Source: Candidatus Doudnabacteria bacterium
Lineage (GTDB): Bacteria > Patescibacteriota > JAQUNI01
Reading direction: 5' to 3'
Assembly (NCBI GenBank): GCA_041644975.1
Contig: JBAZQX010000004.1
Span: 9,189 to 73,188 of the forward strand
DNA: 64,000 nucleotides
The translations under genes were made by a program, and so were the position numbers. The notes beneath the pieces were generated by a model. The model had not been told where the DNA came from. It saw nothing but the letters and a program-made list of their open reading frames with translations, and did no database searches. Positions 4,967-20,801 of the stretch are shown one piece after another; within the stretch, counting starts at the first letter, position 1; every line of letters starts with the position of its first letter.

Positions 4967-5503
4967 ATGCCGCGAGGCAAAGCAAGATGCGGGAAGTGTG
5001 GGTTCTTGGTAATTGCTGAAGTGGAGCAAATTATTGAATGCCCAGGTTGCGGCAGAAAATTCTATATACCTAATGAACCGCGATACACAAATCCTTTAAA
5101 TTCTTTAAGAAGCCACTCCATTGCTCGGTTAAGTTTGGGTCTTGGTTTGGGGCCTCTCTGGAATATAGAAGATTCAAGGCGCTTTACAGACGCACCTGAA
5201 AAAAAATGGGAGATACACCCAGAAGCAAGGCGCAAGGATTTGCGGATAAAGCTGCTGCCTTTCCCAGCAAGAAACGACCCCGAACTGATGCTAGAACATG
5301 GCTGGTTGAGGGTTATTGTAGAATTCTATGGTCACGATGAGGTTGAGAAGATTGGAGTGGCTGTAAGAAAAAGTGAGCTCATCCTTCAGAGCCACCTGTC
5401 TCTTTGCCCTTACCGCAACACAATTGCCTTGCCCGAGGGCTTTGGAACAATATCCGAAGCCACCTTGAGAAACGGCATACTAGAGGTGAGATTAAAAGAA
5501 TAA
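4967..5503 (+). CDS. Hsp20/alpha-crystallin family small heat-shock protein with N-terminal CxxC…CxxC zinc ribbon
   Basis: C-terminus IALPEGFGTISEATLRNGILEVRLKE is the Hsp20 signature. N-terminus CGKCG…CPGCG. SD GAAGGTG 7 nt upstream of the ATG at 4967. Confidence 0.75.
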   Translation: MPRGKARCGKCGFLVIAEVEQIIECPGCGRKFYIPNEPRYTNPLNSLRSHSIARLSLGLGLGPLWNIEDSRRFTDAPEKKWEIHPEARRKDLRIKLLPFPARNDPELMLEHGWLRVIVEFYGHDEVEKIGVAVRKSELILQSHLSLCPYRNTIALPEGFGTISEATLRNGILEVRLKE

Positions 5504-5524
5504 TCTCCCTACTATTAACCGTTT

Positions 5525-5581
5525 AAGGATGTCATTCGCGAATGACATCCTTAAAGATATCCTTGTGATATCTTTTTTTAT
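5525..5581 (+). terminator. Tandem hairpins (28-bp perfect palindrome aaggatgtcattcgcgaatgacatcctt, then agatatc…gatatct + T-run) terminating hsp20
   Basis: Perfect stems followed by TTTTTTT. Confidence 0.65.
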
Positions 5582-5711
5582 TTAGTCAGAATAAGAATCT
5601 TCGTTGGTTCAATTCTCTGAATTGAACCATTAGTTTATGCAGAATTATCTGGTTCAGGTCAGGAGACCTGAATCAACAAAGCGCATAATAGTAGACTTAG
5701 GAAAAATGAGG

Positions 5712-5963
5712 TCAACTCTGATTTTTTATTAAATTAAGTTTATTTTCTCGCCGCCAGCCCTTAATCTCGGCTTCTCTTTGTCTTGCCTCTCTTAGTGTTT
5801 TATATTCCTCCGAATACTTTAAAACAACCGGCCTACGAATTTTAGTATAATGGGCGCCATATTTTGATTGATTATGTTCTTGCAATCTCTTTTTTAGATT
5901 ATTTGTACAACCAACATATAAAGAATTATCGACGCATTCAAGAATGTAAGTATAATATAACAT
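5712..5963 (-). CDS. GIY-YIG nuclease family protein (small, URI domain)
   Basis: YTYILECVDNSLYVGCTNNLKKRLQEHN…REAEIKGW is the classic GIY-YIG motif set. Confidence 0.85.
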   Translation of the reverse strand: MLYYTYILECVDNSLYVGCTNNLKKRLQEHNQSKYGAHYTKIRRPVVLKYSEEYKTLREARQREAEIKGWRRENKLNLIKNQS

Positions 5964-6254
5964 TTTTATCTACTCGCTTTGTAACTTCCTCACTTCGTCG
6001 TCCTTCGTCGCTTCACTCCTCGGAGTTCCTCAGTGTCTCACTTTGCTCGAGCTGGGCATAAGGTACAATCTTCGAACTTTTTTTATGCTCAATGAATGAA
6101 AAAATGAGTTTGTGGAGAGGAAAAAGGTTAGGGTTCGGAAAATTTATGCCTCAGTTGTTTCCTTGAACAACTTCAAATAATTGGCTTGATGGGGGGTGAA
6201 ATTATTGGATTAGAAACATTGTCTTGCTAGTCGAGAAATGAGAATTAGGGAAGC

Positions 6255-7016
6255 TTAATCAATAAATCTGAAGGTATCTAACATCTGATGTGAAATTTTA
6301 TTATTTTTTATGGGTTCGGAGTAATTAGTATTTTCTTTTGCCACAGGAAATTCAAAGCTATACATTTTATCACTATTGGCTAAAAAAATTATTTCTTCTG
6401 ATCCCTCAATAACAAATACTCCGTCAAGCGCTACGGCTTGGATCTCGTTGACTTTAATCTGTTTAATCGTATCATAGTAATAGGGATTAGGAGCTCTGCC
6501 TGCTTTATATTCATTTTCTGCTTCTTGGATTAACTTATTGACATATTCAATTGAATTAAGGTTTTTTGGATTTTCCTCAATAAATAATGTCACTTCATAC
6601 CAAGCGGTTTCCTCAGAATTTGAAGGTGCGTGCCATATTATGAAAGGCGTTCCCTTACCTACGAGTTCGGGATGTAATCCGTGTTCTAAGATTTCCCAAT
6701 TGGGAGGATATTGAATTTCAAATCCATACTCTTTATTTTTATATATATTCCACTCTGTTTTTGGATTAACTGAAATTACTCCAATTAGTTCTTTTTTTGG
6801 TAAACTATATGGTTCTTGTTGTTTTTCTGAAGGCTCAAATTCGTCGTATGATGAACTTATGGGATGAATTACAATGGGTTCTTGTGAATTGAAATTAATC
6901 CCCTTTCCTCTGAAAATTTGCAGACTACTATACGATATTATCAAAACAAAAAAAGCACCTAAAACGATAAGGATAATTTTAAGAGTGATATCTTTGGAGA
7001 AAATTGACTTATTCAT
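6255..7016 (-). CDS. Membrane-anchored hypothetical protein (N-terminal TM, extracytoplasmic domain)
   Basis: TM helix ILIVLGAFFVLIISYSSLQIF, then a domain with no recognisable motifs. Confidence 0.5.
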   Translation of the reverse strand: MNKSIFSKDITLKIILIVLGAFFVLIISYSSLQIFRGKGINFNSQEPIVIHPISSSYDEFEPSEKQQEPYSLPKKELIGVISVNPKTEWNIYKNKEYGFEIQYPPNWEILEHGLHPELVGKGTPFIIWHAPSNSEETAWYEVTLFIEENPKNLNSIEYVNKLIQEAENEYKAGRAPNPYYYDTIKQIKVNEIQAVALDGVFVIEGSEEIIFLANSDKMYSFEFPVAKENTNYSEPIKNNKISHQMLDTFRFID

Positions 7017-7276
7017 GTTTTGATAATTATATTACCAAAAAATACAGAAATTGTCAACTTTTTAGATTTGATTTTTGCCTTCGAACCAAACATTTAGGCT
7101 AATCTAAGGATTTTTCAGGAAAACCGTACGGTCTGGGTATCAGGAGGAGTAAAATCTTCGAACCACCAATTTTGGCTTGTTTGAGAGAAAAAACGAGCAT
7201 AAAAAAACACCCGTTTGTCTGGGCTGGGCATCGTGGACAACGTTAGAACTATTATCCAGCAACAAAATGAGTATAT

Positions 7277-7831
7277 TTACATACCTACCTTATGTAACTC
7301 GTAAGCCACAATTGTAGAAAAAGATATTATAGCGACCTGCTCAAGAAAGTTTCTATATAAATCAAGTTCATCAGTTAAGATAGCATAACCTTTGTCCTTA
7401 GCTGTTGCAATAATAGAAATATCCGTAAATCCGAATTGTATGACTTGCTCTCGCTCTTTTAAAAGGGTTCTAAAATGAATATAGTTTTCTTCCCATTTCT
7501 CTATCTCTTGAATAATTCTGGGGAAATATTCATTTAATTTTTTCCCCTTGAATAGTCTTATACGAGAGAGACTGTTTACTTCTGCAAGAATTTGAGGTGT
7601 TATAACTATTCTGCCAATAAATATTTTTAAGATTTTTTCTAATAAATCAAAGTGCTCCTCGGTATAATTTTTGCCATTATCTGTCATCAATGGGCAATAT
7701 TTTAAATAGCCCTTGTCATATATACCAATTAAAAAAAGAAGTAATATATTTGTATCAAGAATTAAACACGCCTCAGGGTGTCTGAAGCGATAATAACCAA
7801 TCTTATTTATATCTGATAAGTATTTAACCAC
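7277..7831 (-). CDS. PIN-domain protein (VapC-like nuclease fold)
   Basis: LILDTNILL (N-terminal Asp), …EVNSL…, FTDISIIATAKDKGYAILTDELDL (C-terminal T-x-D) fit the PIN acidic quartet. Confidence 0.6.
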   Translation of the reverse strand: MVKYLSDINKIGYYRFRHPEACLILDTNILLLFLIGIYDKGYLKYCPLMTDNGKNYTEEHFDLLEKILKIFIGRIVITPQILAEVNSLSRIRLFKGKKLNEYFPRIIQEIEKWEENYIHFRTLLKEREQVIQFGFTDISIIATAKDKGYAILTDELDLYRNFLEQVAIISFSTIVAYELHKVGM

Positions 7832-7843
7832 AGAGATTAATTT

Positions 7844-8149
7844 TTACTCCGACTCTTTTCTGCTTTTCTTGTCTTTCATAGAAACCACCTCACCTCCATC
7901 TGTAATTTCAAACTCCTTATACTCTCTCTTTTTATCAAATGGAAACTCTCCAATATTGTCGTAACTCAAAACAACCATCCATTTTTTTTTAATGCCACTC
8001 CCTACGGGCACAAATTCCTCAATTCTGACTTCAGATATCTTTTGAGTCGGTGGTGTTATATCTGCTAGATATTTATAAGCCGCAAGCACTATTTCTCTTG
8101 GTGTTTTAGACATAGTGTAATTATATTTAATTTTTGTAAGACTTCCCAC
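7844..8149 (-). CDS. Small hypothetical protein immediately upstream of the PIN gene (candidate partner/antitoxin-position gene)
   Basis: 13-bp spacing to the PIN ORF, same strand. No known motif. Confidence 0.4.
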   Translation of the reverse strand: MGSLTKIKYNYTMSKTPREIVLAAYKYLADITPPTQKISEVRIEEFVPVGSGIKKKWMVVLSYDNIGEFPFDKKREYKEFEITDGGEVVSMKDKKSRKESE

Positions 8150-8322
8150 CTCAAGGTTGTGGATAAAGTAACATAGCTTATTTAGTCAATAGAAGTCAAG
8201 GGAAATGGATTTTAGAATTCTTATTTGTCTTTTTGCTTTTTATTTTTTATATTTGTCAAATATATTAGTTTATTTCATTATATCACAGTTTTACCCCACC
8301 CCGCTACTCACTATATCTTGGA

Positions 8323-8356
8323 AATAAAAAAAAGGTCAAGTTTCAAGACCTGACCC
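8323..8356 (-). terminator. Intrinsic terminator (same ggtcaggtcttgaaacttgacc hairpin as at 1538-1559) after the 8396-8794 gene
   Basis: Hairpin + T-run on the minus strand. Confidence 0.6.
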
Positions 8357-8395
8357 CAAATTTCCCCTTGATTGTTTGAATCTTTATTTTCCCTC

Positions 8396-8794
8396 TCATA
8401 TGTCTATCTGTTTCATTTTCCATTCAATACAGGCGGGAACATAAGTATCTCTGGTATGCCCATAATCATTACCATTTTGACAAAAAATATAACTATCTAT
8501 ATCAAACCAATCAACCTTTTCTTTACACATTTTTTCTCGCTGTTCAAGGAAAAAGCCTGTCAAATCAGGATTAGTTTGCATACTTTGCTTCCAATTTTCA
8601 TATACTTCATCATACTTTCTATCACACTCTTCTTGAAATTTTATTCGGTAACCTAATAATTTTTCCTTCCGTGCTCTTTCTTCTCCCAATTTTTGTTGAT
8701 TAGGCAAGAAAAATAAATAGTAATAAAAAACTGAACCAGCGATTATTAAAATGACTATAATTGCTACGATTTTGATAATTTTGTTTAAATCCAT
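8396..8794 (-). CDS. Small membrane-anchored protein; paralog of 12012-12362
   Basis: N-terminal TM then FYYYLFFLPNQQKLGEERARKEKLL, parallel to FYHYVIYIPNKEDLIRIEEKVDKEL in the paralog. Cys-containing C-terminal domain. Confidence 0.55.
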   Translation of the reverse strand: MDLNKIIKIVAIIVILIIAGSVFYYYLFFLPNQQKLGEERARKEKLLGYRIKFQEECDRKYDEVYENWKQSMQTNPDLTGFFLEQREKMCKEKVDWFDIDSYIFCQNGNDYGHTRDTYVPACIEWKMKQIDI

Positions 8795-8860
8795 AGTATT
8801 TTCTTCGTTGATTCAATTCTCCCGAATTGAACCACTAGTTTCTGCAGAATTATCAGAGAC

Positions 8861-9340
8861 TTAAGCTAACGAACTCTTTTTAAACTCCCTTTCACTATCA
8901 GTAAGTATCGCCATTATTAAATCTTTTTGATTTTGCCAAATAGTTTGGCTAATAGAAACAACTTGTTCGTTAGTTAAATTTTTAGCAACTTGCTCTGCTA
9001 ACCTATTACCTATATTTTTAACCATATCTATTAAAGCCTGTTCTCTGTCTCTTTGTGCCTTAATTCTAAAATAAGCAATTACCACAGAAAGACCCAAAAT
9101 GAAAAATCCTAACACGCCAAATAAAATCTGTTTCCGGAAATTTTGCTCATTGAAGACACCAAATACAATAACTGATCCACCTACATAGGTTATCACTCCA
9201 ATAACGCCAAATTCTCTTAAAACCTTTACCAGATTTGATTGTATTAGGTTCATAAAATCACTTATTAATTTTTTAATTAAAGGCCATAACCTTTGCAATC
9301 GGCAAGCTCCATGAAGACTAGAATTTTTATTATTAGTCAT
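8861..9340 (-). CDS. Hypothetical membrane protein (2 TM); real start probably MNLIQSNL at about 9252
   Basis: Hydrophobic helices VIGVITYVGGSVIVFGVF and ILFGVLGFFILGLSVVIAYF. Confidence 0.45.
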   Translation of the reverse strand: MTNNKNSSLHGACRLQRLWPLIKKLISDFMNLIQSNLVKVLREFGVIGVITYVGGSVIVFGVFNEQNFRKQILFGVLGFFILGLSVVIAYFRIKAQRDREQALIDMVKNIGNRLAEQVAKNLTNEQVVSISQTIWQNQKDLIMAILTDSEREFKKSSLA

Positions 9341-9445
9341 AATTTAGCCAAGCTAGAGCTTTATCTAACGGCTAAGGGAGATAGGTGCCCTGCGCCTGTG
9401 GCTACGGAGCGCTTTACTCCCACCCCCTCCATCTCCCCCTCGGGC

Positions 9446-9632
9446 AGGGGGAGTGTAATTGGTGCTGGGCATCGTGAACGATGTTATAACCATATTTCAA
9501 CGACAAACCGAGTATATTTACATACCAAATTTAAGTCTACAAGCTTAAAATCATTATATCAAATTTTACCCTACCCTGCTACTCACTATTGTTTTGCTCT
9601 TTGTTATTTTACCCCACCCCGCTACTCACTAT
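9446..9632. repeat. Repeat family A copy (longest copy, plus an extra partial TTTTACCCCACCCCGCTACTCACTAT unit)
   Basis: cagggggagtgtaattggtgctgggcatcgtgaacg…gagtatatttacataccaaatttaagtctacaagctta…ttttaccctaccctgctactcactat. Confidence 0.8.
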
Positions 9633-9757
9633 ATTACTAAGGGGGGTAGGGAGTGCCAGATTGAAAATCTAACGAATAAAAGAATTCTTATAGTCGCTCC
9701 GCACAGAAGTGTTTTTATCTTGAAATATATTTTAGTCCGATTTTTAAAATCTCCTCT

Positions 9758-9861
9758 AATGTTAGAACTATATTACAACGACAAAATGAGTATATTTACA
9801 TACCAGATTTAAGTCCACAAGCTTAGTTTATCAGATTTTACCCTACCCCGCTACTCACTAT
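9758..9861. repeat. Repeat family A copy
   Basis: gttagaactatattacaacgacaaaatgagtatatttacataccagatttaagtccacaagcttagtttatcagattttaccctaccccgctactcactat. Confidence 0.8.
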
Positions 9862-9870
9862 TTCTTAAAA

Positions 9871-9901
9871 ACAAAAAGCTCCCATTTCTGGGAGTTTTTT
9901 T
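9871..9901. terminator. Bidirectional intrinsic terminator (ctccca-tttc-tgggag with flanking A-run and T-run)
   Basis: 6-bp GC-rich stem flanked by AAAAA and TTTTTTT. Confidence 0.5.
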
Positions 9902-10244
9902 GTTGGAATAGCAAGCTACTTAAAAGGAAAACAAGATTTCGTCGCTTGTTTCGCCCTTTGTTCGCTCCCTCAAACGAGGCTCTTGGTATGTCCGTAAACC
10001 AATGTTGCTTTTAACCGCACAAGGCGGACTTATTGCACAACACCGTTTTCAGCCAAAAGACCGAAAAATACCAACTCTCACTATTCCAATCAAATTATAT
10101 CAAATTTTTCTTATAGCTTCCAGTAACTCCTGCTGGCGTTTTTGAAGCGAGGCGTCAAAGATAATACGGTATTCAAAGTTCTTATTTGCTTGCTGGAACT
10201 CCTTAAAGCCGATTTCTTTTGCTTACCTCGCAACATAACTTTGA

Positions 10245-11705
10245 TTATTTGAACCAATTTACAATTTTTTTGAAGACCCTACCGATCTTTGCTGGAATGT
10301 CCGAAAAGGTCGATTTTATAAATGACAAAATTTTGTCATTTTTATTTATAGATACGCTACTTTCCTGACTACTGTTACTATTATCTTTATTTTCTTGTTC
10401 CGCACCCTGCTCATCCGTTGTCATTATCGTATTTTGCGAGCTTATGGCATTTTTTTCTTTCTCAACTACCACGGCTTTATCAGTGATTTCCAAACAACTA
10501 TTTCCAACTTCTTTAAAACCTTCATTACATTGCCATACATCTGCAGGGCTATCCGTTACTGGATGTGCGTTTGAGGGTATTTTAATACATTCAGTCTTAT
10601 TCAACGAAAGCGCATATCCCGCGCTACAAGTTTTTCTTTTTTCTGGGCTGTTTTGTTCTTGCGTTATCTTGGTTTGATTATTCGTTACTGGGGGGATCGC
10701 AAAGTCTAGAGGGGGAGAACTGTCTTCCTCTTCCTTTTTTAAAGTGTAATCAGAATCAATTTTTTCTAAACTTGTAATGTCGCAGGTTTCATCGTCATCT
10801 TGCAAAACAATCTTATCCCATCTATCAACATCAAAATCAATTCCTAAATTGACTACAATTCTATCATTTAAATATCTCTTAATAGAGGATGTATAGCATC
10901 CAGAATCATAAGTGATTAGGTAATATTGGTAATTATATTCACTTTTGATAATAGCCTGCCTCTCATCTGTGTTAAGTTCTTTTAAAATAAAATAAACATT
11001 ATTTTGTTTTTCAACACATTGATTATCATCATTTAAAGTATAATTACTATCACATTCACATTTTTTATTTAAAGAATTATAAGAAGAGTGAAGACCATAT
11101 TTAGTGAAGCAAGAGACGCATTCATTGCCACCGCCTATAGTTTTTTGCCTCAGAATATAGCCGTTTCGACACTCACAGACATCAGATAATGAATTGTATG
11201 TCGAATTATACCCAAGTTTATTGTGGCAATATTCGGTTGTATCTATGCATTTTGTTTTTCCAAAAAGGTCTTCACTAAAAATATACCCATAACGACACTT
11301 ACAAGTATCAGACAAAGAATCGTATGTCGAGCCGTATCCATATTTGTCTTTGCATTGCTGTTCTGTAGAAATACATTGTGTTCTTCCTACTGCATCTTTT
11401 CCCAAAGAATATCCATATCCGCACTCACAAGAATCATTTAAAGAGTTATATTTTGAGTTAAAGCCATATTTATCTTTACACATTTGGTCTGCCGATACAC
11501 AGCTAGCATTACCAAGAATATCTTTACCAAAAACATAACCACTCATACATTTACAGCTATCTGTTAAAGAATTATATGTCGCCCATATACCGTATTGAGA
11601 ACACTCACCGTAGCTTTGAGTGATTTTAATGTGAAATAAAAACAAACCTGACAAAATAAGCAAAACAGTTATGGCATAAAATTTATGATTGAATTTGAAA
11701 TCCAC
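10245..11705 (-). CDS. Secreted/surface Cys-rich tandem-repeat protein (about 7 copies of a roughly 44-aa C…YG.NS.YNSLSD.C.C..GY…G…C module) with Ser/Asn-rich C-terminal tail
   Basis: N-terminal TM/signal (FYAITVLLILSGLFLFHI). Repeats such as QCKDKYGYGSTYDSLSDTCKCRYGYIFSEDLFGKTKCIDTTEY. Confidence 0.6.
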   Translation of the reverse strand: MDFKFNHKFYAITVLLILSGLFLFHIKITQSYGECSQYGIWATYNSLTDSCKCMSGYVFGKDILGNASCVSADQMCKDKYGFNSKYNSLNDSCECGYGYSLGKDAVGRTQCISTEQQCKDKYGYGSTYDSLSDTCKCRYGYIFSEDLFGKTKCIDTTEYCHNKLGYNSTYNSLSDVCECRNGYILRQKTIGGGNECVSCFTKYGLHSSYNSLNKKCECDSNYTLNDDNQCVEKQNNVYFILKELNTDERQAIIKSEYNYQYYLITYDSGCYTSSIKRYLNDRIVVNLGIDFDVDRWDKIVLQDDDETCDITSLEKIDSDYTLKKEEEDSSPPLDFAIPPVTNNQTKITQEQNSPEKRKTCSAGYALSLNKTECIKIPSNAHPVTDSPADVWQCNEGFKEVGNSCLEITDKAVVVEKEKNAISSQNTIMTTDEQGAEQENKDNSNSSQESSVSINKNDKILSFIKSTFSDIPAKIGRVFKKIVNWFK

Positions 11706-11743
11706 AAATTATATTTTAGTATTAGAAATTATTTAATTTCTAG

Positions 11744-11995
11744 CTAATAACGCAACTTATAACTTTTATAGGGGCTTGTATATCCTTTTGCGCCTGTGTA
11801 TGGGTTGTAATTTCCTTTCGTTGACCAGTTATCTAATCTGCTTCTGTTGGGGCTAGTCCTATAATATGGCTGGACATATGTGCCAGTGCTTTTTTTGTAA
11901 TAACTCCTAACTCTGATTGTGCGTGCTTCGGCAGAAAAGACAAACAAGCCAAAAACGAAAGACAGAATAATTGATAAAACAATAAGTTTTTTCAT
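11744..11995 (-). CDS. Small secreted Tyr/Lys-rich protein with signal peptide
   Basis: MKKLIVLSIILSFVFGLFVFSAEA signal, then Y-rich 60 aa. Confidence 0.5.
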   Translation of the reverse strand: MKKLIVLSIILSFVFGLFVFSAEARTIRVRSYYKKSTGTYVQPYYRTSPNRSRLDNWSTKGNYNPYTGAKGYTSPYKSYKLRY

Positions 11996-12011
11996 AATTT
12001 TCCCTTTTTAA

Positions 12012-12362
12012 TTATTTTATAGGATATTTTTTAAAACATTCATCTTTGATTTGTTGATAGGCTTTCTTTAAATCATCTGCTCTATTTGAAGCCAATAAAC
12101 AACTACCATCTGTGCCGATTTCCCTATTATCTACTTTGCAATATTCATTCCATTGGTCGCGAGATGTAGTTTTAGCGTCTTCTAGACAAGCCTCAAGCAT
12201 TGATTTATTTAATTCTTTATCCACTTTTTCCTCAATTCGTATTAAGTCTTCTTTATTAGGAATATATATAACATAATGATAAAAAATAGCAAAACCTATC
12301 AATAATACGGCGGCTGCTAAAGTAGCTTTGAACCAATTAATCTTTTTTATTTTTTCTTTCAT
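12012..12362 (-). CDS. Small membrane-anchored protein; paralog of 8396-8794 (start taken at MKEKIKKINWF)
   Basis: Same TM + PN(K/Q) + coiled segment + Cys-containing C-terminal architecture. Confidence 0.5.
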   Translation of the reverse strand: MKEKIKKINWFKATLAAAVLLIGFAIFYHYVIYIPNKEDLIRIEEKVDKELNKSMLEACLEDAKTTSRDQWNEYCKVDNREIGTDGSCLLASNRADDLKKAYQQIKDECFKKYPIK

Positions 12363-12366
12363 AAAT

Positions 12367-13308
12367 TTAAGGCAAAGTTTCACACACAACGCCGTCTTTA
12401 TCTCGGTCTAGTTTGTGCACATCTCCCCTGCCTTGTGTTATGCAGTAATTATAACAGGCTTGAGCCTGTTTTTGTGTTGTGAAATCAGGGCAATTATAGG
12501 TATTACTACTGCAATTGCAAACTGTTTCCGTTGTAGTAGTGGTGGGTGCAGGCGTAGTTTGAATTGTGGGGCTAGTTTGGGCTTGGTTTGCTGAATTATC
12601 AGCTACGCAAGCATCATCAGCCCATAATCCTCGCTTATTCTTCTCTGCTTCTTTTTGAGCTTCTTTAAATTCTGATTGGTATTTATAGGGTGTGGAGTAA
12701 GTATATTCGTAAGCGTAGCCTTCGGCAATCATTAGTTTATTAAAGTTTGTCCCGTCTTCTAAAAAGACATATCTCAATAATCTACCATATTTGTCTCTTT
12801 CTCCTTGGGTTGGGTCGTTTTCTAAAATTACACTTTTGCCATTCAAAACTTCCTTGGCTTTATCGGAGGCTTCTTTACCAAAACATTCAACGGGTTTGCG
12901 AGGGTCAACGGTTTCGGGGGTGTTAATACCTATAAGCCTTAGGGTCTCTTTTGTCCCGTCCATATCAACTGTTACCGTATCCCCGTCAACAACTTTAATC
13001 ACCTTGTATAATTTCTGGGCTGATTGCCCCTCTGTTGCAGAATCTACACTTGGGGAGGTCTGTTGTGGTTCTGTCTGGCTGGCTTCATTTTGAGGCTCTT
13101 GGGTTGCGGATTCAACGGCTTGGGCTAGGGGCTGGTCTTGCTTTTCCTCCTGCGGCTCATTTATTGTCTGTTCTTGATTGGCGGTATCCTCAATCTTGGT
13201 TTCGCCAGTTTCTTTAGGATGTTGGCTAGTTTGAGTAGTCTCTGCACATCCTGCCAAAACAAAAAAACCTAGTAGGAGAATTGTCCATTTAACAAATTTG
13301 ATATTCAT
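12367..13308 (-). CDS. Thermonuclease (staphylococcal-nuclease/SNase fold) lipoprotein with C-terminal Excalibur Ca-binding domain
   Basis: Lipobox VLAGC. SNase motifs DGDTV, LRLIGINTPE, YGRLLRYV. C-terminal CPDFTTQKQAQACYNYC…LDRDKDGVVCE is the Excalibur signature. Thr/Gln-rich linkers. Confidence 0.8.
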   Translation of the reverse strand: MNIKFVKWTILLLGFFVLAGCAETTQTSQHPKETGETKIEDTANQEQTINEPQEEKQDQPLAQAVESATQEPQNEASQTEPQQTSPSVDSATEGQSAQKLYKVIKVVDGDTVTVDMDGTKETLRLIGINTPETVDPRKPVECFGKEASDKAKEVLNGKSVILENDPTQGERDKYGRLLRYVFLEDGTNFNKLMIAEGYAYEYTYSTPYKYQSEFKEAQKEAEKNKRGLWADDACVADNSANQAQTSPTIQTTPAPTTTTTETVCNCSSNTYNCPDFTTQKQAQACYNYCITQGRGDVHKLDRDKDGVVCETLP

Positions 13309-13373
13309 ATTCTTTTGGAATCTACATATTTTACCCCACCCCTCATTCACTTATATTTTTAGAAACAGGATTT

Positions 13374-15269
13374 TTATTTAACTTTTTCAGGAGTTTTAAA
13401 AATAAGCATTGTTGTTCCTATTTTTTTATAGAAATAATCTTTAATCCTATTGTATTTTTTGTTTTCGGGTAATTTATCATTAAAAACATTGTTTTGATAT
13501 TCAAAAATAGAAACGACGATATATGAATCAGTCGGAATCCATCCCCATTCAATATTGTAAGGCTCATATCCCTTCCCCAGATAATATTGCAATGGAACAT
13601 TAGTAAAAATATGAGCATAAATTTTATTTATATTATTATCCTTTACCCATTCTGCTAGTCTTTTTACATCCTGACCGCCCCAGTCATAATTTGAATCCGT
13701 TGCAATTTTATAACCATTATTAGTTCCTCCGGCAAAAGCGTTGTAATAACTCAAATAATATGGAAAAAAAACTATAGTTGATACTAAAATGACAATTGCC
13801 AAAAGAAAGAATAAAGATTTTGTTTTCAGGACGCGGAACAATTTTAAGTTCCAATGTAAATCAATCCCCCTCGCCGTTAATAGTATAACGGAAATAATTA
13901 CGGGCATAATATGTCTCAATCCAATTTGTAAGTTTGAAGATAGAGTAATTACCATATATAAATACGAGAATAACAAGAGCAAAAAAGATAATGGATTTTT
14001 CAAGAATGTTGATAATCTGGTTTTAATGTCTATTTTAGAAGATATAAATTTCCAAGTTGCTAAAGCTAGAGAAACGAAAATTAAGATAAGGGCACTAATG
14101 GACAATTTCGTTAAAAATAGAATCGGAAAATATAATGCTCCGGCTCCTTCTGAACCATAAACTCTACCCATAAAATATGTTTTTTGTAAGGCAGAGGACA
14201 TTCTTCCCCCAACCATTATTACGCCCAGTATATATTCTGCTATCCCTTTTGTTAGCGGATTGCTAATTACAAAACTTGATAATATTTCTACCCCTTGAGA
14301 TGGTAGTTCTTGCGGATATGTCTGCACTATTTGGGTTATCATTTCATCATTAGTCATATTGCGAACGTGAAGAGAATAAAAAATGGCAACAATAAAGAAT
14401 ACGGAAAGAATAAACGAAGAATAACGAATTAAAAATTTACCCACTTCTTTTCTGCTCTTTTGAACGAAAATTATAAAAATTAATCCCCCTAAAAACATTG
14501 CTGGAATAATAAGGACTGAAGAAAACTTTGCTAATAGCGCCAGCGAGGTGAACAACACCGAGAATAGAAACCAAGCTAAAATTTTACCTTTTTGTGCATA
14601 GTTTTTAAGATAAATTGCAAAACATACAATAGCTATTATTTGAAGTAGGGACGACATAAAGTCCATTATAACCAGAGAACCCATTGAAATAACAAATTGA
14701 GAAGAGACCATTAAAAAAATCCCTATCAATGAGGTTCTTTTGCTCCATATTTTTGTTAAGAAAATATAAAGCAGAAAAATAAAAAATCCATTAAACACAA
14801 TAACTGCTAATCTAGACCAAAAGGCAATATTGTCAGGATCATTATTTGGATTAAACAAAAAAAGTCTCCCCCAATCCCATTGGGCATTTCCAACCTCCAG
14901 CTTTTTCGGCATTATGTAGCTTTTAAAGGGGTAATCCCATCTTGTAAATTCTGAACCGAGATTAATTTTGTCTGAAATCTCCGGAAAAGTAGGTTTAATA
15001 AGCAACAGGGGTAAGCCGGCAATATCTTTAACAATAGGAGGATGTTCAGGATTTATGAAGTATCTACCCGTTTTTAGATAATAATATCCACTTGGAATAT
15101 GTGATAATTCATCGGATGTGATTGCGTCTCCTGTATATTTTAAATTTTTCCAATGAAATCCCTCAACGGAAAAAAGGGCAATTAAAATAAAGAAGGTTGT
15201 TAAAAGTATTGCTAATATGAAATTTGTTTTATTTTTAAGAAATGATTTTGGCTCTAATTTTTTAATCAT
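13374..15269 (-). CDS. GT-C membrane glycosyltransferase, family 39-like (PMT/ArnT-type); paralog of 43779-45530
   Basis: More than 10 TM helices. Conserved SHIPSGYYYLK…NPEHPPIVKDIAGLPLL and C-terminal SNYDWGGQDVKRLAEWV shared with the 43779 paralog. Confidence 0.6.
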   Translation of the reverse strand: MIKKLEPKSFLKNKTNFILAILLTTFFILIALFSVEGFHWKNLKYTGDAITSDELSHIPSGYYYLKTGRYFINPEHPPIVKDIAGLPLLLIKPTFPEISDKINLGSEFTRWDYPFKSYIMPKKLEVGNAQWDWGRLFLFNPNNDPDNIAFWSRLAVIVFNGFFIFLLYIFLTKIWSKRTSLIGIFLMVSSQFVISMGSLVIMDFMSSLLQIIAIVCFAIYLKNYAQKGKILAWFLFSVLFTSLALLAKFSSVLIIPAMFLGGLIFIIFVQKSRKEVGKFLIRYSSFILSVFFIVAIFYSLHVRNMTNDEMITQIVQTYPQELPSQGVEILSSFVISNPLTKGIAEYILGVIMVGGRMSSALQKTYFMGRVYGSEGAGALYFPILFLTKLSISALILIFVSLALATWKFISSKIDIKTRLSTFLKNPLSFLLLLFSYLYMVITLSSNLQIGLRHIMPVIISVILLTARGIDLHWNLKLFRVLKTKSLFFLLAIVILVSTIVFFPYYLSYYNAFAGGTNNGYKIATDSNYDWGGQDVKRLAEWVKDNNINKIYAHIFTNVPLQYYLGKGYEPYNIEWGWIPTDSYIVVSIFEYQNNVFNDKLPENKKYNRIKDYFYKKIGTTMLIFKTPEKVK

Positions 15270-15520
15270 AAAATTAATTTCAGTAGATAATTATTATTTT
15301 GTAAAATGCAATCTTTTCATATTTTTAAATTATTTTTCAAGCATCACTATTTAACCAGAAACACGAAGCTCCCCGCCAGCGATAGCCTTGCGGCTACCCA
15401 TATCCCTTTCGAGATATGACCGACTAAGGTGCTCTGAACGAGGAGCTTGATGCCTTAGTCGGTTTTATGCCATACCTCATAGCAAAACTATCAGGGTTAG
15501 GCAATTTAATTTTCAAAATA

Positions 15521-15745
15521 CTATGTTATGTGCTTTCTCTCTAACAACCTCTTAATATCATCTTTTCTATAACGCCTTATCTTTTTTTCACCAATCCTGA
15601 TTGCAACCAAAATACCTTTTTTGTCCCACTGGCGCAAGGTGTTAGGATGACATTTTAAAATATCACAAGTCTCTTTGAGGGTAAGAAGTTCTGGCATATC
15701 TTGTCTGTTTTTTACTACTTTTACCATTGATTTTTTACTTAACAT
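15521..15745 (-). CDS. Helix-turn-helix DNA-binding protein, excisionase/MerR-like (Xis-type)
   Basis: LLTLKETCDILKCHPNTLRQWDKKGILVAIRIGEKKIRRY is the HTH_17/Xis pattern. Confidence 0.65.
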   Translation of the reverse strand: MLSKKSMVKVVKNRQDMPELLTLKETCDILKCHPNTLRQWDKKGILVAIRIGEKKIRRYRKDDIKRLLERKHIT

Positions 15746-15815
15746 TTGATACCATTATCATACAGCAGAAAAAAATAATCTGCAAATATTAAAATGAAAA
15801 TTACTATAAATTACT

Positions 15816-17423
15816 ATGACACCAGAAGCAAAAATTTGGCTAATTTTAAAAAATCTAAATGATGCACTTACAATTGCCCCGAGCAAAAATTTGGCACTGT
15901 TGAACGCAAAAGACTTAGAGAAGTTGATGGCTAGAGAAGAGCACGAACAAATTTTGGAAAAGTTAGTTAAGGATTACAAAGTGGTGGATATTCAGAAAAA
16001 ACCAGATTATCAAAAAAGCTTTTTTTACAAATGCAAAATTACTGACAGCGACGAGTTTAATAAAATTTTAGAAGATGCTCATATCAAATATTTTGGTAGT
16101 TTAGGAATGCTGACAGGTGATAATTTTTTATCCGTAGTTGATGTAGCGACAGACATAATGAACGAGCTCCAAATGACCAAGGGGGATGAAACAGTGATAC
16201 CGCTTTTTCCATCCATTGTCAGATTTTCTAATCTTATGCCAGCAGACAGTATTAACTTAAGAGATAGATACTGTGATTTGAGATGGAAAGCAGTAATATA
16301 TTTAAGAGATAATGAATATATTAAAAATTTTAAGCTATTGAATCAAGCTTATGGAAACTTCCACAGATGGGATTTTGAAATCAAAATATCGCTGAATAGA
16401 ATTAAATTTTATAAATTTTACGAACAATTGATAACAACATATAATAGGCGGGTAAAATTTAGAAGTGAAGAGAAAAAAATAAAAAAGGAAAATGAAGCCC
16501 TAGACTATACAGACACAGCTTCAAGAAGGGCGTGGGAGAAAAAATGGGACACATTGCAAGTAATATGGACTATTTATGAAAGCAACAACAAACCAAATCA
16601 GCTACTTGTGCCTATTAAAAGACTAACTATTAAAGATAGAATCATTCTTGAAATTGAAGGTCTATTAAACGGCTTTGAAGATGATGGCTGTTTTGATTGG
16701 TGTAGAGGAACGGAGAATTATGAGATTAAAAACATAAACCACAACCTATTTGCAGAAACTTACAAAAAAACAGGGCTTATTTATGATAAATTCGCCAAGA
16801 TTTACCGAGAAAGGGTTAGCGATAAAAATATTGAAGATAAACAACCAACACAAAAAATTGAAATTGTTGGAGGTAAAATAGAAATTGAAGGATTGCAGGA
16901 TGGATTAAAAGCAATCGCCCAGACCAAAAAAGAAGATAAAAATCAATTTCCTTATAAATTACCAGCAGGAACGAAATGGGAAAATTTTACTATTAAGTTT
17001 GAGGATGATGAAAATGTTTTTATCCAAGTAAAACAATTTAAGTATAGTGCTGACTACAGAAAGATGGGAATGGTCGGACGAGGCAAAAATCCCAATCCAA
17101 GCGAAGCGTGGACATTTCTGAAAGTTTTATCTCAAGTTAATAATGAACTGACAATAAAAGACGCCGAAGCGAGAGATAAATATAAAAAACAAAAAGAATT
17201 ATTAGCAAAAGCACTTCAAAAATACTTCTTACTTGATTATGACCCCTTCTATCCTTATCACTCATCAACAGAAAAAAGCGGCAACTCTTATAAAATTAAA
17301 ATTACCCTAATACCGCCACCAGACAAAAAAGAAAAAGCTGATACTAATAAAGACGATAACGACGATTTAGGAATAAAAGAATACTTCAATAAACAAACTC
17401 CACAAATTTATGAAGACCAGTAG
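15816..17423 (+). CDS. Large hypothetical protein (535 aa ORFan) in the mobile element
   Basis: No recognisable catalytic motifs. Followed by a clear terminator. Confidence 0.5.
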   Translation: MTPEAKIWLILKNLNDALTIAPSKNLALLNAKDLEKLMAREEHEQILEKLVKDYKVVDIQKKPDYQKSFFYKCKITDSDEFNKILEDAHIKYFGSLGMLTGDNFLSVVDVATDIMNELQMTKGDETVIPLFPSIVRFSNLMPADSINLRDRYCDLRWKAVIYLRDNEYIKNFKLLNQAYGNFHRWDFEIKISLNRIKFYKFYEQLITTYNRRVKFRSEEKKIKKENEALDYTDTASRRAWEKKWDTLQVIWTIYESNNKPNQLLVPIKRLTIKDRIILEIEGLLNGFEDDGCFDWCRGTENYEIKNINHNLFAETYKKTGLIYDKFAKIYRERVSDKNIEDKQPTQKIEIVGGKIEIEGLQDGLKAIAQTKKEDKNQFPYKLPAGTKWENFTIKFEDDENVFIQVKQFKYSADYRKMGMVGRGKNPNPSEAWTFLKVLSQVNNELTIKDAEARDKYKKQKELLAKALQKYFLLDYDPFYPYHSSTEKSGNSYKIKITLIPPPDKKEKADTNKDDNDDLGIKEYFNKQTPQIYEDQ

Positions 17424-17460
17424 CGAAGTTAACCTTTAGCTTTTAATAAATCTCTTACAT

Positions 17461-17496
17461 AAAACTCCTCACAAAATGGGGAGTTTTTTGTTTTTC
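17461..17496 (+). terminator. Intrinsic terminator after the 535-aa ORF
   Basis: aactcc…ggagtt stem + TTTTTTGTTTTT. Confidence 0.6.
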
Positions 17497-17578
17497 TGCG
17501 ACAGAGCGTGAAATTCGCCATCTATAAGTAGAAGGTCGCAAAAAATAAAAAAATCACAATTACCCAAAATTAAATTAT

Positions 17579-17839
17579 ATGGTTAAAAAATCACAAAAAA
17601 GTCAGTCAGACGAGATGTTCGCCACTTACGATTTAGGATGTGCCGCCGCTTTGATAACGGCAGATTTTGAGTTGCTCACTTTGGATAAAGCTAATCCACG
17701 CAAAGTCCAGTTCATCTTTCGCCGAGAAGTCGGCATTGAAAAAGTCGTGGATGACTACTGGGCTGACAGATTAGAAGTTAAAGCACGGGCGTTCTTTGAT
17801 AATATCAAAATGTTAAAGAACCGCATTTACTCGGAATAA
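17579..17839 (+). CDS. Small hypothetical protein, possibly phage-associated (weak DUF5659-like pattern)
   Basis: FATYDLGCAAALITADFELLTLDKANPRKVQFIFRRE loosely resembles DUF5659-type small phage proteins as recalled, not verified. Confidence 0.35.
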   Translation: MVKKSQKSQSDEMFATYDLGCAAALITADFELLTLDKANPRKVQFIFRREVGIEKVVDDYWADRLEVKARAFFDNIKMLKNRIYSE

Positions 17840-17842
17840 ATT

Positions 17843-18040
17843 ATGATAACCGATGTGCAGATTGCAAAATTCCAGACACTTTACAAAAATCGCTTTGGCA
17901 AAACAATCAGCCGAGAGGAAGCGTTTGATATGGGAGTAAAACTCATCCGATTAGTTGAGTTGATTTACAAACCGATGAAAGAAAATGAATATCAGGAATT
18001 GCAGAAACGCCGCCAAAGCCAAAAAACTGACGACATTTAA
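17843..18040 (+). CDS. Small hypothetical protein
   Basis: 65 aa, 4 nt after the previous gene (operonic). Confidence 0.35.
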   Translation: MITDVQIAKFQTLYKNRFGKTISREEAFDMGVKLIRLVELIYKPMKENEYQELQKRRQSQKTDDI

Positions 18041-18060
18041 TAAAATTTAACATTAAAATT

Positions 18061-20295
18061 ATGCAAGAATTACAAACCATTACAATTAAAGAGTATCTGG
18101 CACGCAAAGGCGTTGCCTTTCGTGAGAGCGGCAAAGAGCTTATCACCCACTGCCTTTTTAACGGCTGTGATGAGAATAGCAAAACTAACGAAGCTCATCT
18201 TTATTTTGACGCAGAAACAGGGCAATTCAACTGCAAAAAGTGCGGCGAAAAAGGCAACCTCATAACCCTTGCTAAACATCTTGGCGATAGAATAAATGAT
18301 ATTGCCCTTAATCCAATAGCTCCCATTAAAAATTCACAAAAATCCACGAAATTTGACGCAGAGCTGGTTGAAACCTGTCATCAAGCACTTTCAGTCAATA
18401 TCCGCCAGTATTTGAACGCACGGGGCATCACAGACCCCATTATAGACACATACAAGCTTGGTTGGGGCAAATTCTACGGCAAATGGTGGATTACTATTCC
18501 TATTCAGGATATTGATGGAAATTTTGTTTTTCTCAAATTACGGCAAGACCCAGAAGATACAAATAATCCAGATAAATATAAATTTTATCCTGCTGGGAGT
18601 AGCGCAACTATCTATGGATGGAAAATGCTGAAAAATAACAAAGGCACCATTGTAATCTGCGAAGGTGAGTTTGACCAATTAGTGTTGTTACAAAATGCTA
18701 TTCCCGCTATCACTTCCACGGCTGGCGTTGGAACTTTCAAAAAAGAGTGGATTGAATACTTGAAAAAATTGGAAAAAATTTATATTTGCTTTGATAAAGA
18801 TGAAGCTGGTGAGAAAGGAGCAGAGCGGCTCATTAAACTTTTATCTGAACATTTATCTGATACTGCTATTTACAAAATTACGCTCCCAGAACGAATGGTT
18901 GACGGCAAAGATATAACCGATTATTTCCTAAGATACAACGGCAATGTGGATGAATTGATTTACAAATTAGCAAAAGAATATCCAGAGCGAATTGATACCT
19001 CGCAGTTCAAGCCGCTATCCTCGCAGGATTTGGTTGAAATACTTGGATTGACGATAAAGCAGGATGATGAAAATAAAATCGTAACCTTCCTTTGCGAGTT
19101 ATCGGCATATACGGAAAACGCTCAATTCAACATCAGCTTTAACGCACCATCATCTACGGGTAAAAGCTATATCCCCACCGAGATTGCTCGGTTATTCCCA
19201 GAAGAAGATGTAATGGAGCTTGCCTATTGCAGTCCTACGGCATTTTTTCACGATGTCGGCGAATGGAACAAAGATATGAAAGGATATGTCGTGGATTTGT
19301 CTCGCAAAATTTTGATTTTTCTTGACCAACCACATACTTTACTTCTTCAACATCTCCGTCCGTTGCTCTCGCACGATAAAAAGGAGATTTCGGTGAAAAT
19401 TACTGATAAGACGCAGAAGTTTGGATTGAAGACCAAAAATATCCTACTCAAAGGATACCCCGCAGTGATTTTCTGCACGGCAGGATTGTTGATTAACGAG
19501 CAGGAAGCAACACGATTTCTCCTGTTAAGCCCAGAGATTAACCAAGAGAAAATCAGGCAAGGGATTTTGGAGAGCATTAAAAAAGAAGCAGACGCCGAGA
19601 GCTATAAGGGCTGGCTGGATGAAAACCCCGAACGAAAGCTACTTAAAGAGCGGATACGGGCAATAAAACTGGAAGGTATCCGTGAAATAAAAATTGCAAG
19701 TTATCAAAAGGTTGTTGATAGATTTTTGAGCGAAAATAAGGTGCTCAAGCCCCGACACCAGCGAGACATTAAACGCCTTGTCTCAATTATAAAATCCTTT
19801 GCCTTAATCAATCTCTGGTGGCGGGAAAAAAACGGCACAACCATTACCGCCAATGAGGATGACATTGAACAGGCATTTAAGATTTGGGACGCTATCTGCA
19901 TAAGCCAAGAGCTTAGTCTGCCACCGTATATCTACAATCTCTACCAAGAAGTTATCTTGAAGGCGTGGAATGACAAAAATAGCAACAGAAGCGAGGCAAC
20001 GGGACTGCTCGGCTTATCACGGCAGGAACTACTGCAAAAGCACTTTGAGGTCTATGGGCGGATGTTGGACACAAACCAGCTACGCCAGCAGATTTTGCCA
20101 ATGCTGGAGATGGCGGGGCTTATCGTGCAAGAGGCAGACCAAAACGACAAACGAAAAATGTTGATTTCCCCTACCGCACTAACCACTAAATCTCCGAACC
20201 AAAACAATAGTGAGAACGGGGGTGGGGTGAGCACCAACGAGGAAAACAATAGTGAAACGCAGGGTGGGGTAACTCCAAACTTAGGAATTTTCTGA
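18061..20295 (+). CDS. DNA primase (CHC2 zinc finger + TOPRIM) fused to a C-terminal P-loop NTPase-like domain (phage/plasmid primase, P4-alpha-like architecture)
   Basis: CHC2 ribbon HCLFNGCDENSKTNEAHLYFDAETGQFNCKKCGEKG. TOPRIM GTIVICEGEFDQ … CFDKDEAGEKGAERL. Walker-A-like NAPSSTGKSY in the C-terminal half. Confidence 0.75.
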   Translation: MQELQTITIKEYLARKGVAFRESGKELITHCLFNGCDENSKTNEAHLYFDAETGQFNCKKCGEKGNLITLAKHLGDRINDIALNPIAPIKNSQKSTKFDAELVETCHQALSVNIRQYLNARGITDPIIDTYKLGWGKFYGKWWITIPIQDIDGNFVFLKLRQDPEDTNNPDKYKFYPAGSSATIYGWKMLKNNKGTIVICEGEFDQLVLLQNAIPAITSTAGVGTFKKEWIEYLKKLEKIYICFDKDEAGEKGAERLIKLLSEHLSDTAIYKITLPERMVDGKDITDYFLRYNGNVDELIYKLAKEYPERIDTSQFKPLSSQDLVEILGLTIKQDDENKIVTFLCELSAYTENAQFNISFNAPSSTGKSYIPTEIARLFPEEDVMELAYCSPTAFFHDVGEWNKDMKGYVVDLSRKILIFLDQPHTLLLQHLRPLLSHDKKEISVKITDKTQKFGLKTKNILLKGYPAVIFCTAGLLINEQEATRFLLLSPEINQEKIRQGILESIKKEADAESYKGWLDENPERKLLKERIRAIKLEGIREIKIASYQKVVDRFLSENKVLKPRHQRDIKRLVSIIKSFALINLWWREKNGTTITANEDDIEQAFKIWDAICISQELSLPPYIYNLYQEVILKAWNDKNSNRSEATGLLGLSRQELLQKHFEVYGRMLDTNQLRQQILPMLEMAGLIVQEADQNDKRKMLISPTALTTKSPNQNNSENGGGVSTNEENNSETQGGVTPNLGIF

Positions 20296-20336
20296 CACTA
20301 TAAAAAAGGGCGAAAAACATATAACACTTCTAACAT

Positions 20337-20801
20337 ATGACAAAAGTATCACAAAAACAATTAGAGGCAAACCAAAAAAACGCCAAGCTCGGCGGAGTAA
20401 AGACCGATGAGGGCAAGGCGGTAAGTAAGCTAAATGCTTTAAAACACGGACTATTAAGTAAAGAGGTATTACTTAATGAAGAAGACGAAAAATCCCTTAT
20501 TGAACTCGGAAAAAGATTGCGGACAGAGTTAAAACCAGATACGGAACTTGAGCTATTGTTAGTTGATAGGATTGTAGCGAATTTTTGGAGATTGCGAAGA
20601 GCAATGATAATAGAACAACACGATGTTATCTCTGACACTGGAGGGTTAATGTATGATTGTGATAAATTTTTCCGCTATGAGACACTGCTTGAAAGAGGAA
20701 TTTATAAAGCCCTTCACGAATTGCAACGGATACAATCTGCTCGTGCTGGAGAGAAACCGCCCGCCCCATTGGCAGTGGATATTGATGTTTCTACTGATTA
20801 A
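20337..20801 (+). CDS. Hypothetical protein (mobile-element cargo)
   Basis: 154 aa, no known motif. Confidence 0.4.
   Translation: MTKVSQKQLEANQKNAKLGGVKTDEGKAVSKLNALKHGLLSKEVLLNEEDEKSLIELGKRLRTELKPDTELELLLVDRIVANFWRLRRAMIIEQHDVISDTGGLMYDCDKFFRYETLLERGIYKALHELQRIQSARAGEKPPAPLAVDIDVSTD

Follow-up and report, generated by a model that had tools for sequence, protein, structure and literature searches.

The phiC31/Bxb1-type integrases, Tn5397/TndX and SCCmec Ccr are large-serine-recombinase systems. Bacteria of the candidate phyla radiation (CPR) have tiny genomes and live attached to hosts, and their mobile DNA is poorly charted. Islands seeded at tRNA genes have been described in Prochlorococcus, where new elements (tycheposons) push older ones distally, remnants and partial tRNA copies accumulate and variability is highest by the tRNA; nearly all tycheposons carry tyrosine recombinases, with partial tRNA copies at their junctions and attachment sites of typically ~40 nt (Hackl et al., bioRxiv 10.1101/2020.12.28.424599). 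Here, a tRNA-Gln locus in a 64,000-nt stretch of DNA from a Candidatus Doudnabacteria bacterium (the window; all coordinates are positions in it) is compared with these systems, with emphasis on the segment 5585-15290, which the first-pass annotation had described as an accessory surface-gene segment adjacent to an integrative element.

With a probability of roughly 0.78, this segment is the distal part of a tRNA-Gln-seeded island built by successive insertions of one large-serine-recombinase element family. Three parts make it up, namely the cargo with the left arm of a resident element, the stump of an older element and host-side DNA, and it is not the single separate island first proposed; its part 9469-15290 lies inside the element rather than beside it, as indicated by left-arm homology and a copy of the tRNA core. 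In the proposed mechanism, the recombinase would join attP to the 3' end of the tRNA gene, which would stay complete, the original last nucleotides being displaced to the far junction. The next element would enter between the tRNA and the older element and push the latter outward, where decay would follow, and cargo would be exchanged by recombination at promoter-like repeats, here called family A.

Extent and attachment sites of the resident element

As delimited by homology, the resident element occupies 9469-23309 (13.8 kb), belongs to a large-serine-recombinase family and is inserted at tRNA-Gln. Its layout runs from the attL core and left arm through promoter-like/leader repeats, a structured RNA candidate, the cargo slot, the LOOT RNA, xis and a replication-type module with a Toprim primase-like gene to the recombinase and attR. 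Its features outside the cargo genes are as follows.

9460-9490, plus strand: attL, with the core TGGTGCTGG, a displaced copy of the tRNA-Gln 3' end, then the arm GCATCGTGAACGATGTTATAAC
9469-10102, minus strand: element left arm, with D2 leader and family-A copies (duplicated here) and the structured RNA candidate
~9870-10095 (from 10095 to 9870), minus strand: structured RNA candidate with its own promoter and intrinsic terminator
10103-10222, minus strand: type III res stump, the last 40 codons, 92.5% identical to residues 802-841 of the Res protein of locus L112; a stop codon precedes
15359 (15359-15503 with LOOT), minus strand: cargo-backbone junction, within a hairpin that is truncated here and complete in relatives
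15381-15503, minus strand: LOOT RNA (Rfam RF03000), full-length, 88.9 bits versus a gathering score of 46.4
15521-23402, plus strand: element backbone, with an xis-like HTH_17 gene (minus strand), a 535-aa variable ORF, DUF5659, a 65-aa ORF, a Toprim primase-like gene, 154-aa and 200-aa ORFs and the large serine recombinase (Pfam and PHROG profiles)
23310-23384, minus strand: tRNA-Gln(UUG), with the attR core TGGCTGGGG at 23310-23318

The element family was sampled via the primase-like protein, which yielded 80 relatives on metagenome contigs at 55-89% identity (L-numbers denote metagenome comparison loci). The gene order xis, variable ORF, DUF5659, 65-aa ORF, primase, two ORFs and serine recombinase is common to the 80 loci. 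In the window, the recombinase (21705-23402) matches PF00239 (E 1.6e-16), PF07508 and PF13408, each above its cut-off, corresponding to resolvase, recombinase and zinc-ribbon domains, and the xis-like protein has HTH_17/MerR-type domains by profile search; Pfam/PHROG profile scans of the element recognised neither virion nor conjugation genes. A second, smaller variable slot lies between xis and DUF5659, occupied here by the 535-aa ORF (15816-17423; G+C at third codon positions, GC3, 0.28), which has no family hit, and in relatives by other genes or by homologues 28-71% identical.

The left end of the element is marked by homology on the far side of the cargo. The apparently non-coding positions 9468-10237 have counterparts, 72-89% identical in nucleotide sequence, in at least 14 of the loci with the primase gene, in the left flank and a few kb from the backbone, and homology begins at 9468-9474 in at least nine independent loci. 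The targets detected among the left-flank loci (L090, L093, L099, L104, L105, L117 and L119) are His, Glu, Ser and Asn tRNAs; across relatives, with L128 and L139 included, they are His, Glu, Ser, Asn and Gly tRNAs, and the target in the window is Gln. Because the flank is common to elements at different tRNAs, it is part of the element. Its end carries a conserved recombination arm, GCAYYGTGAAC...GTTAGAAC, a pattern found in the window only at 7228 and 9469 (0.02 expected). In six loci, the 5-7 nt outside the arm repeat the tRNA-Asn 3' end, (TG)GCTCC, and tRNA-Asn is the detected target in three of these six; in both tRNA-His loci, the sequence outside the arm fits the target tRNA only loosely. 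No direct repeat of a tRNA fragment was found by BLAST, a misleading negative because the core is only 9 nt long and imperfect.

At the right end, where the arm is conserved across loci as it is on the left, the attR core is the last 9 nt of tRNA-Gln, homology to empty-site relatives stops at 23309 and 23312, and the recombinase ORF runs antisense through the target tRNA. Since the ORF ends inside the tRNA, its last ~30 codons are tRNA-encoded when the element is integrated and would change on excision. A junction of attP type is present in L095 (4950-5300), where no tRNA separates the 3' end of the recombinase (GTTCGTGCACAC) from the core TGGCTCC and the left arm (GCACTGTGAAC) that come next; beyond it lie the structured RNA and then type I restriction-modification (R-M) genes, and the contig has the appearance of a related element in circular or tandem form.

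The continuity of the arm with the structured RNA, res, mod, LOOT and backbone in intact relatives, its direct joining to the recombinase end in L095 and the res stump beside the window arm, which shows that an element interior was once attached, all argue against an improbable alternative in which the left-arm units are short non-autonomous elements mobilised by the recombinase, those at 9469 and 7228 are solo insertions and the genes lying between them and the backbone are trapped chromosomal DNA. This alternative draws on the existence of solo or extra left arms, at 7228, in degenerate form at 1358-1465, twice in L119 and once after the glycosyltransferase gene of L173; solo arms by a tRNA-derived core are, however, also the expected leftovers of decayed elements.

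A shade less probable again is the picture given by the first-pass annotation, with the element confined to the ~8-kb block 15359-23309 and 5585-15290 as an independent chromosomal surface-gene island. Nucleotide homology of the backbone to many related elements does stop sharply at 15357-15359, which first suggested 15359 as the element end, and homologues of the accessory genes lie inside the backbone in 0 of the 80 related loci, the only match being a homologue of the Tyr-rich peptide in the L119 flank. Position 15359 is, however, the boundary between the backbone and a variable slot; homology resumes at 10237-9468, with res stump, structured RNA and left arm ordered as in elements at other tRNAs; and the tRNA core copy is at 9460-9468, not at 15359. 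The left flank, the res stump and the core copy together led to the rejection of an end at 15359, and a resident element spanning 9469-23309 is therefore retained below.

Cargo slot, non-coding RNAs and family A

In every relative examined, the slot that separates the left arm from the backbone holds R-M genes, which adjoin LOOT in those loci that have it. One type III Res and Mod pair, with copies 70-89% identical to one another, is found in L092, L093, L094, L104, L105 and L112, other type III pairs in L086, L090, L099 and L117, fused R-M enzymes in L088 and L100 and type I genes in L095, and the R-M types of the family include type IIG-like ones. The window element has no intact res or mod. 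As res is reduced to its 40 C-terminal codons and mod is gone, the five genes of 10245-15269 have replaced mod and most of res; at the LOOT side, the swap cut the hairpin that follows LOOT in relatives. Judged by this comparison, 10245-15269 is element cargo, made up of five low-GC genes for envelope or secreted proteins.

10245-11705, minus strand: 486-aa membrane-anchored protein with 26 Cys and five ~42-aa 4-Cys repeats
11744-11995, minus strand: 83-aa Tyr-rich peptide, predicted secreted, with a signal-like N-terminus and 13% Tyr
12012-12362, minus strand: 116-aa anchored 4-Cys protein (cargo)
12367-13308, minus strand: SNase and Excalibur lipoprotein (SNase E 3e-27, Excalibur E 4.5e-5, lipobox LAGC at residues 18-21)
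13329-13370, minus strand: family-A copy between the glycosyltransferase and nuclease genes, at a strain breakpoint
13374-15269, minus strand: 631-aa GT-C (GT39/PMT-like) glycosyltransferase (cargo)

Most of the labels first given to these genes hold, including those of the Tyr-rich secreted peptide and of the thermonuclease-Excalibur lipoprotein, whose SNase domain scores 95.5 bits against a cut-off of 21; the SNase domain aside, a PADLOC scan gave no defence-system assignments. The Cys-rich protein is not an ORFan but belongs to a family with at least 651 cluster representatives (E <= 1e-3), and a PDB sequence search with it returned nothing useful. The 116-aa protein had been paired as a paralogue with the small membrane protein at 8396-8794, but the two are alike only in the anchor region (13/39 identities); it has full-length similarity and conserved Cys positions in common with the product of a gene beside xis inside the L119 element. 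A homologue of the Tyr-rich peptide, 62% identical, lies in the tandem-element flank of the same locus. That left flank (L119 900-6900) has two left-arm copies, each after GCTCC (the tRNA-Asn end), which points to stacked elements there too; besides the Tyr-rich peptide homologue, the stretch between the arms encodes a NucS/MrcB-type nuclease and a PrsW-protease protein that has Cys-rich repeats.

The 631-aa protein had been called a second GT39 paralogue. It is indeed 30% identical to the protein encoded at 43596-45527, which passes the PMT and PMT_2 cut-offs, and its homologues at 43-71% identity carry PF02366 and PF13231, but its own PMT_2 match is weak and below the cut-off (E 4e-4, 21.2 bits versus 26.1). 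GC3 is 0.27 for this gene versus 0.46 for the paralogue in the window. By hydropathy, the protein has ~10 hydrophobic stretches, the first of them followed by TSDELSH, a candidate for the acidic motif of the first outward-facing loop. In other CPR genomes (L169, L170, L171 and L166), the orthologous glycosyltransferase genes and PIN pairs (the latter described below) have a G+C content 5-12 percentage points below that of their flanks, even where these are housekeeping genes; low G+C thus accompanies these genes.

In L173 and L174, the glycosyltransferase gene (92.6% DNA identity) stands alone between tRNA-Glu and a family-A/D2/arm unit, an arrangement that reads as a decayed element at tRNA-Glu; homology to the window stops at 13325, by the family-A copy at 13329-13370. 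L173 comes from the same sequencing run as L168, a close relative of the window. Cargo thus placed at two tRNAs is, on sequence comparison, cargo that moves between sites. As cargo accounts for half of what had been taken for a chromosomal island, that half can move along with the element. The probable, predicted functions are DNA scavenging for the nuclease, glycosylation of envelope components for the GT-C enzyme and a surface-protein role for the Cys-repeat protein; the cargo products appear to be destined for the cell envelope. Of the surface/host-interaction island first proposed, the surface part fits the gene content and "envelope cargo" would be a fair description, whereas host interaction extrapolates from predicted localisation and is a guess.

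Two RNAs flank the cargo slot. LOOT reaches the gathering score in 13 of the 19 related loci tested (L086, L088, L090, L092, L093, L094, L097, L104, L112, L117, L119, L135 and L143) and is always on the same strand as xis, in the interval from xis to the first cargo-slot gene, with a hairpin and the mod start codon after it. Given this fixed place, it looks like a cargo-operon leader or an xis 3' untranslated region. The 22 nt that come after LOOT are similar to the end of tRNA-Gln, and a role as guide RNA was considered for them and rejected, these nucleotides being the 5' half of the hairpin, which is kept with Asn, His and Ser targets and is thus target-independent. Rfam lists LOOT (RF03000) as an sRNA from Weinberg et al. 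2017 (PMC5737381), and the accessible part of the main text of that article does not discuss it.

The structured RNA candidate, which has no match in Rfam, has homologues in L086, L090, L093, L095, L099, L104 and L117. In an alignment of eight sequences (RNAalifold), it forms 44 pairs, eight of them with compensatory changes, and has a variable inserted hairpin. The RNA begins GGAGTAGTGAG, its promoter has the GGGGTAAAA-TTTGnTATAAT form, as in family A, and the window copy has an extra 66-nt insertion (9914-9979). The orphan Rfam motif LOOT can in this way be tied to one constant genomic position, and another conserved RNA candidate comes to light. It is conceivable, if doubtful, that both RNAs (LOOT and the ~150-190-nt RNA by the left end) are working parts of the life cycle in a widespread, apparently undescribed CPR element family, with GGGTAAAA and the extended -10 serving as family promoter and as a recombination hotspot for cargo swaps. 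The two RNAs might time restriction-gene expression after entry, control excision or prime replication.

The family-A core TTACCCYACCCYGC occurs seven times in the window, where 0.01 copies are expected by chance, and five of these copies are in the segment, in line with the earlier count of at least five. The motif, AATAGTGAG...GCRGGGTRGGGTAAAA, usually has an extended -10, TGATATAAT, 2 nt downstream. It is located in left arms, upstream of the PIN partner gene and in the gap between the glycosyltransferase and nuclease genes, and the primase gene of the window element and of 11 relatives has two tandem copies at its 3' end. From these positions, we infer that family A is a promoter-like module of the element family. 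Strain breakpoints fall at family-A copies at 8299 (L168) and 13325 (L173/L174); these breakpoints, two cases only, fit recombination between family-A copies as a route of cargo exchange.

Older stump and host-side DNA

From the tRNA outward, the order is tRNA-Gln, intact element, core copy 9460-9468, stump and core copy 7219-7227. Having its tRNA side at 9468 and a left end at 7228, the interval 7228-9468 occupies the position of an element and is, by its junctions, a stump left by an older member of the element family. The features of the stump and of the DNA beyond it are as follows.

8396-9340, minus strand: genes for two small membrane proteins, one (132 aa) having 4 Cys and an N-terminal anchor, the other (159 aa) two transmembrane segments
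8289-8357, minus strand: family-A module, GCGGGGTGGGGTAAAA then the extended -10 TGATATAAT; a terminator hairpin precedes; strain breakpoint
7844-8113, minus strand: PIN partner, 89 aa (101 aa from a GTG start), upstream of the PIN gene
7277-7831, minus strand: PIN-fold protein, 184 aa, a putative Mg-dependent RNase
7219-7306, plus strand: old left end, with the tRNA-Gln-like core TGGGCTGGG (7219-7227), the arm GCATCGTGGACAACGTTAGAAC (7228-7249) and a D2 copy
6255-7016, minus strand: 253-aa protein with an N-terminal anchor (hydrophobic residues 4-36)
5712-5963, minus strand: GIY-YIG protein, 83 aa (Pfam GIY-YIG, E 7e-19)

The last codons of the PIN gene run into the D2 copy at the old left end, and the same junction is present in L168 (~2560-2583). 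The tRNA-proximal genes of the stump differ, being those for the two small membrane proteins in the window and two different genes in L168. A tblastn search of 5500-15358 (E <= 5) found no backbone-gene remnants besides a family-A tandem resembling the primase 3' end.

The 184-aa protein had no match in Pfam, NCBIfam or PDB sequence searches, but its earlier assignment as a PIN protein was confirmed at the level of the fold: an AlphaFold model built with 18 homologues has a pLDDT of 85.9, and 30 of its 32 best Foldseek matches in the PDB are VapC or other PIN proteins (TMt 0.53-0.72). Residues D26, E84, D137 and D154 are invariant in the 18 homologues, and three homologues are named FCF1 in the JGI annotation. 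The upstream partner, also noted earlier, is kept beside the PIN gene in two other contigs, with 61% identity to the gene upstream of the L166 PIN homologue and 92% to the L168 counterpart. Its single-sequence model (pLDDT 71) has one helix and four strands, with weak NTF2-like matches and no antitoxin-type match; as modelled, the partner lacks a classical antitoxin fold. The pair falls short of the full VapBC definition and may help the old stump to persist as an addiction-type module.

The remainder, 5585-7227, is host-side DNA, judged by comparison with L168 (~92% DNA identity). The GIY-YIG gene, correctly named before, is 87% (amino acid) and 85% (nucleotide) identical to L168 2676-2977, in the same relative position. 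The 253-aa protein has no match in Pfam, NCBIfam or PHROG, and the 1.2-kb stretch with its gene (6039-7222) is missing from L168, where homology jumps from 7223 to 6038. L168 begins in tRNA-Gln and continues with two unrelated small genes, then with window 8299-7223 (PIN pair) and 6038-5724 (GIY-YIG). It is without 8300-23309, the stump lying directly at tRNA-Gln with no resident element. A second empty site is offered by L082 (TypA 82% identical), which is collinear with the window from DnaB via CysS, CorA, GtrA and DnaX to tRNA-Gln, and in which only 730 bp separate tRNA-Gln from TypA. The nearest named TypA (83% identity) is from Candidatus Torokbacteria, and all close TypA matches are from Patescibacteria/CPR. 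The window belongs to the ENA metagenome contig ERZ27249422:k141_195079, and NCBI lists proteins identical to its glycosyltransferase and near-identical to its PIN protein under a MAG with the label Candidatus Doudnabacteria. In a TypA-anchored synteny comparison, species-representative genomes (TypA 62-71% identical) had no neighbouring genes in common with the window, which is uninformative because these genomes are too distant.

All 11 ORFs within 5585-15290 are on the minus strand, and the ORFs, repeats and low G+C reported by the first-pass annotation are real. G+C is 0.338 in 5964-15358 versus 0.422 in 23310-64000, and GC3 is 0.22-0.27 in the accessory genes (0.36 in the nuclease gene) versus 0.43-0.53 in core genes. 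By hydropathy, signal, anchor or transmembrane segments are present in 8 of the 11 ORFs. Terminator-like sites, several of which had been reported, number 16 versus an expected 9.8 +/- 3.3, only a modest enrichment. Synteny is not kept across relatives, L082 being without the block and L168 having only its PIN pair and GIY-YIG gene, and composition is not uniform; the block is therefore accessory, and it is compositionally foreign, as first claimed. Only two comparator contigs are at hand and CPR genomes are known to shed genes, but an ancestral region lost by deletion from L082 and L168, with nothing ever inserted, is very improbable in view of the foreign composition, the att-type junctions with tRNA core copies, the same element family at other tRNAs in many metagenomes and the glycosyltransferase gene at a different tRNA in a close relative.

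Several further repeats were recorded in the window. A third, degenerate left end at 1358-1465/1570 consists of ACTGGCTCC abutting ACATCGTGGAC, with the core TGGCTCC, D2 and family A. It adjoins a 66-aa APS-kinase fragment (1102-1302) and is broken up by a GC-rich palindrome of ~50 nt (1461-1520); palindromes of this type, CGACGTGG, are also found in L082, as a tandem array after tRNA-Gln. In the window, a terminator hairpin comes next (1532-1570), 97% identical to that at 8328-8366. The 29-nt repeat CGRGCAGGGGGAGTGTAATTGGKGCTKGG (90% identity) lies at 9441-9469, the outer side of attL, and at 2255-2283, just 3' of the TypA stop codon. A hairpin-containing repeat, GAATTGAACCAYTAGTTTMTGCAGAATTATC, at 5619-5649 and 8824-8854 may be another portable upstream/leader module; the sequence 5630-5681 beside it recurs in L173 (269-320), between tRNA-Glu and the glycosyltransferase gene.

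Some observations weigh against an island built by successive insertions of this element family. For the empty site, there are two contigs to compare with, L168 of 4 kb and the more distant L082 of 14 kb. The two cores, TGGTGCTGG and TGGCTGGGG, differ by one indel and one mismatch; the crossover point is deduced, not seen, and the attP-type junction is known from the related element in L095, not from the window copy. The window left arm is rearranged, with one copy that has the recombination arm (9469-9596) and a second D2 and family-A copy (9758-9913) that has none, whereas relatives are single-copy; the element may therefore have lost the ability to excise cleanly, or the stretch between the copies may contain a further remnant. 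The stump holds no backbone fragment, and its proposed element origin depends on left arm, core copy and position. Finally, distant glycosyltransferase orthologues (82% and 71% identical) lie among housekeeping genes in other CPR genomes with a G+C below that of their flanks, and low G+C is therefore partly a property of the gene itself.

Comparison with known systems

The biology of this island is ordinary, in that it follows the model already described for marine cyanobacteria. Tycheposons, like the window element, combine integrase, excisionase and primase/helicase modules with cargo and integrate at tRNAs, and the difference between the window and L168 in the tRNA-proximal genes is what the tycheposon model predicts for additive islands. 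Compared with tycheposons in architecture, the window differs in having a large serine recombinase, a core of 7-9 nt and a CPR host, and its element family usually carries an R-M system in addition to two non-coding RNAs that are conserved. A literature search found no description of this family, and scans of viral contigs with the primase, the glycosyltransferase and the Cys-rich protein as queries returned no relatives.

The likeness to the phiC31/Bxb1, Tn5397/TndX and SCCmec systems lies in the resolvase/recombinase/zinc-ribbon recombinase, the short crossover core, the imperfect inverted-repeat attP and a separate small candidate directionality factor (HTH_17). In contrast to them, the element targets the extreme 3' end of the tRNA, at least seven different tRNA species are used by its relatives, and the recombinase ORF runs through the tRNA. 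As far as the accessible part of Furuta et al. 2010 (PMC2853133) describes integrase-linked mobile R-M units, the relatives resemble these in having R-M genes as standard cargo, and the window copy differs in having lost the R-M genes and carrying envelope genes instead. The PIN pair resembles VapBC in its PIN fold, its four conserved acidic residues and a small adjacent/overlapping upstream gene kept in different contexts; at 184 aa, the PIN protein is longer than the matched PIN/VapC chains in the PDB (120-147 aa), and, unlike VapBC antitoxins, its partner is modelled without an RHH, AbrB, Phd or HTH fold and has a weak NTF2-like resemblance, some PIN homologues being named FCF1-like by JGI.

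In summary, this one locus brings together the parts by which envelope genes are gained, namely a tRNA-targeting serine-recombinase element, its cargo slot, a swap in which surface genes took the place of defence genes, and a stump left by an earlier insertion. What sets it apart from the systems compared above is its CPR host, a very short core at the 3' extremity of the tRNA, a read-through recombinase ORF, and two RNAs together with a standard R-M cargo that has been swapped out.

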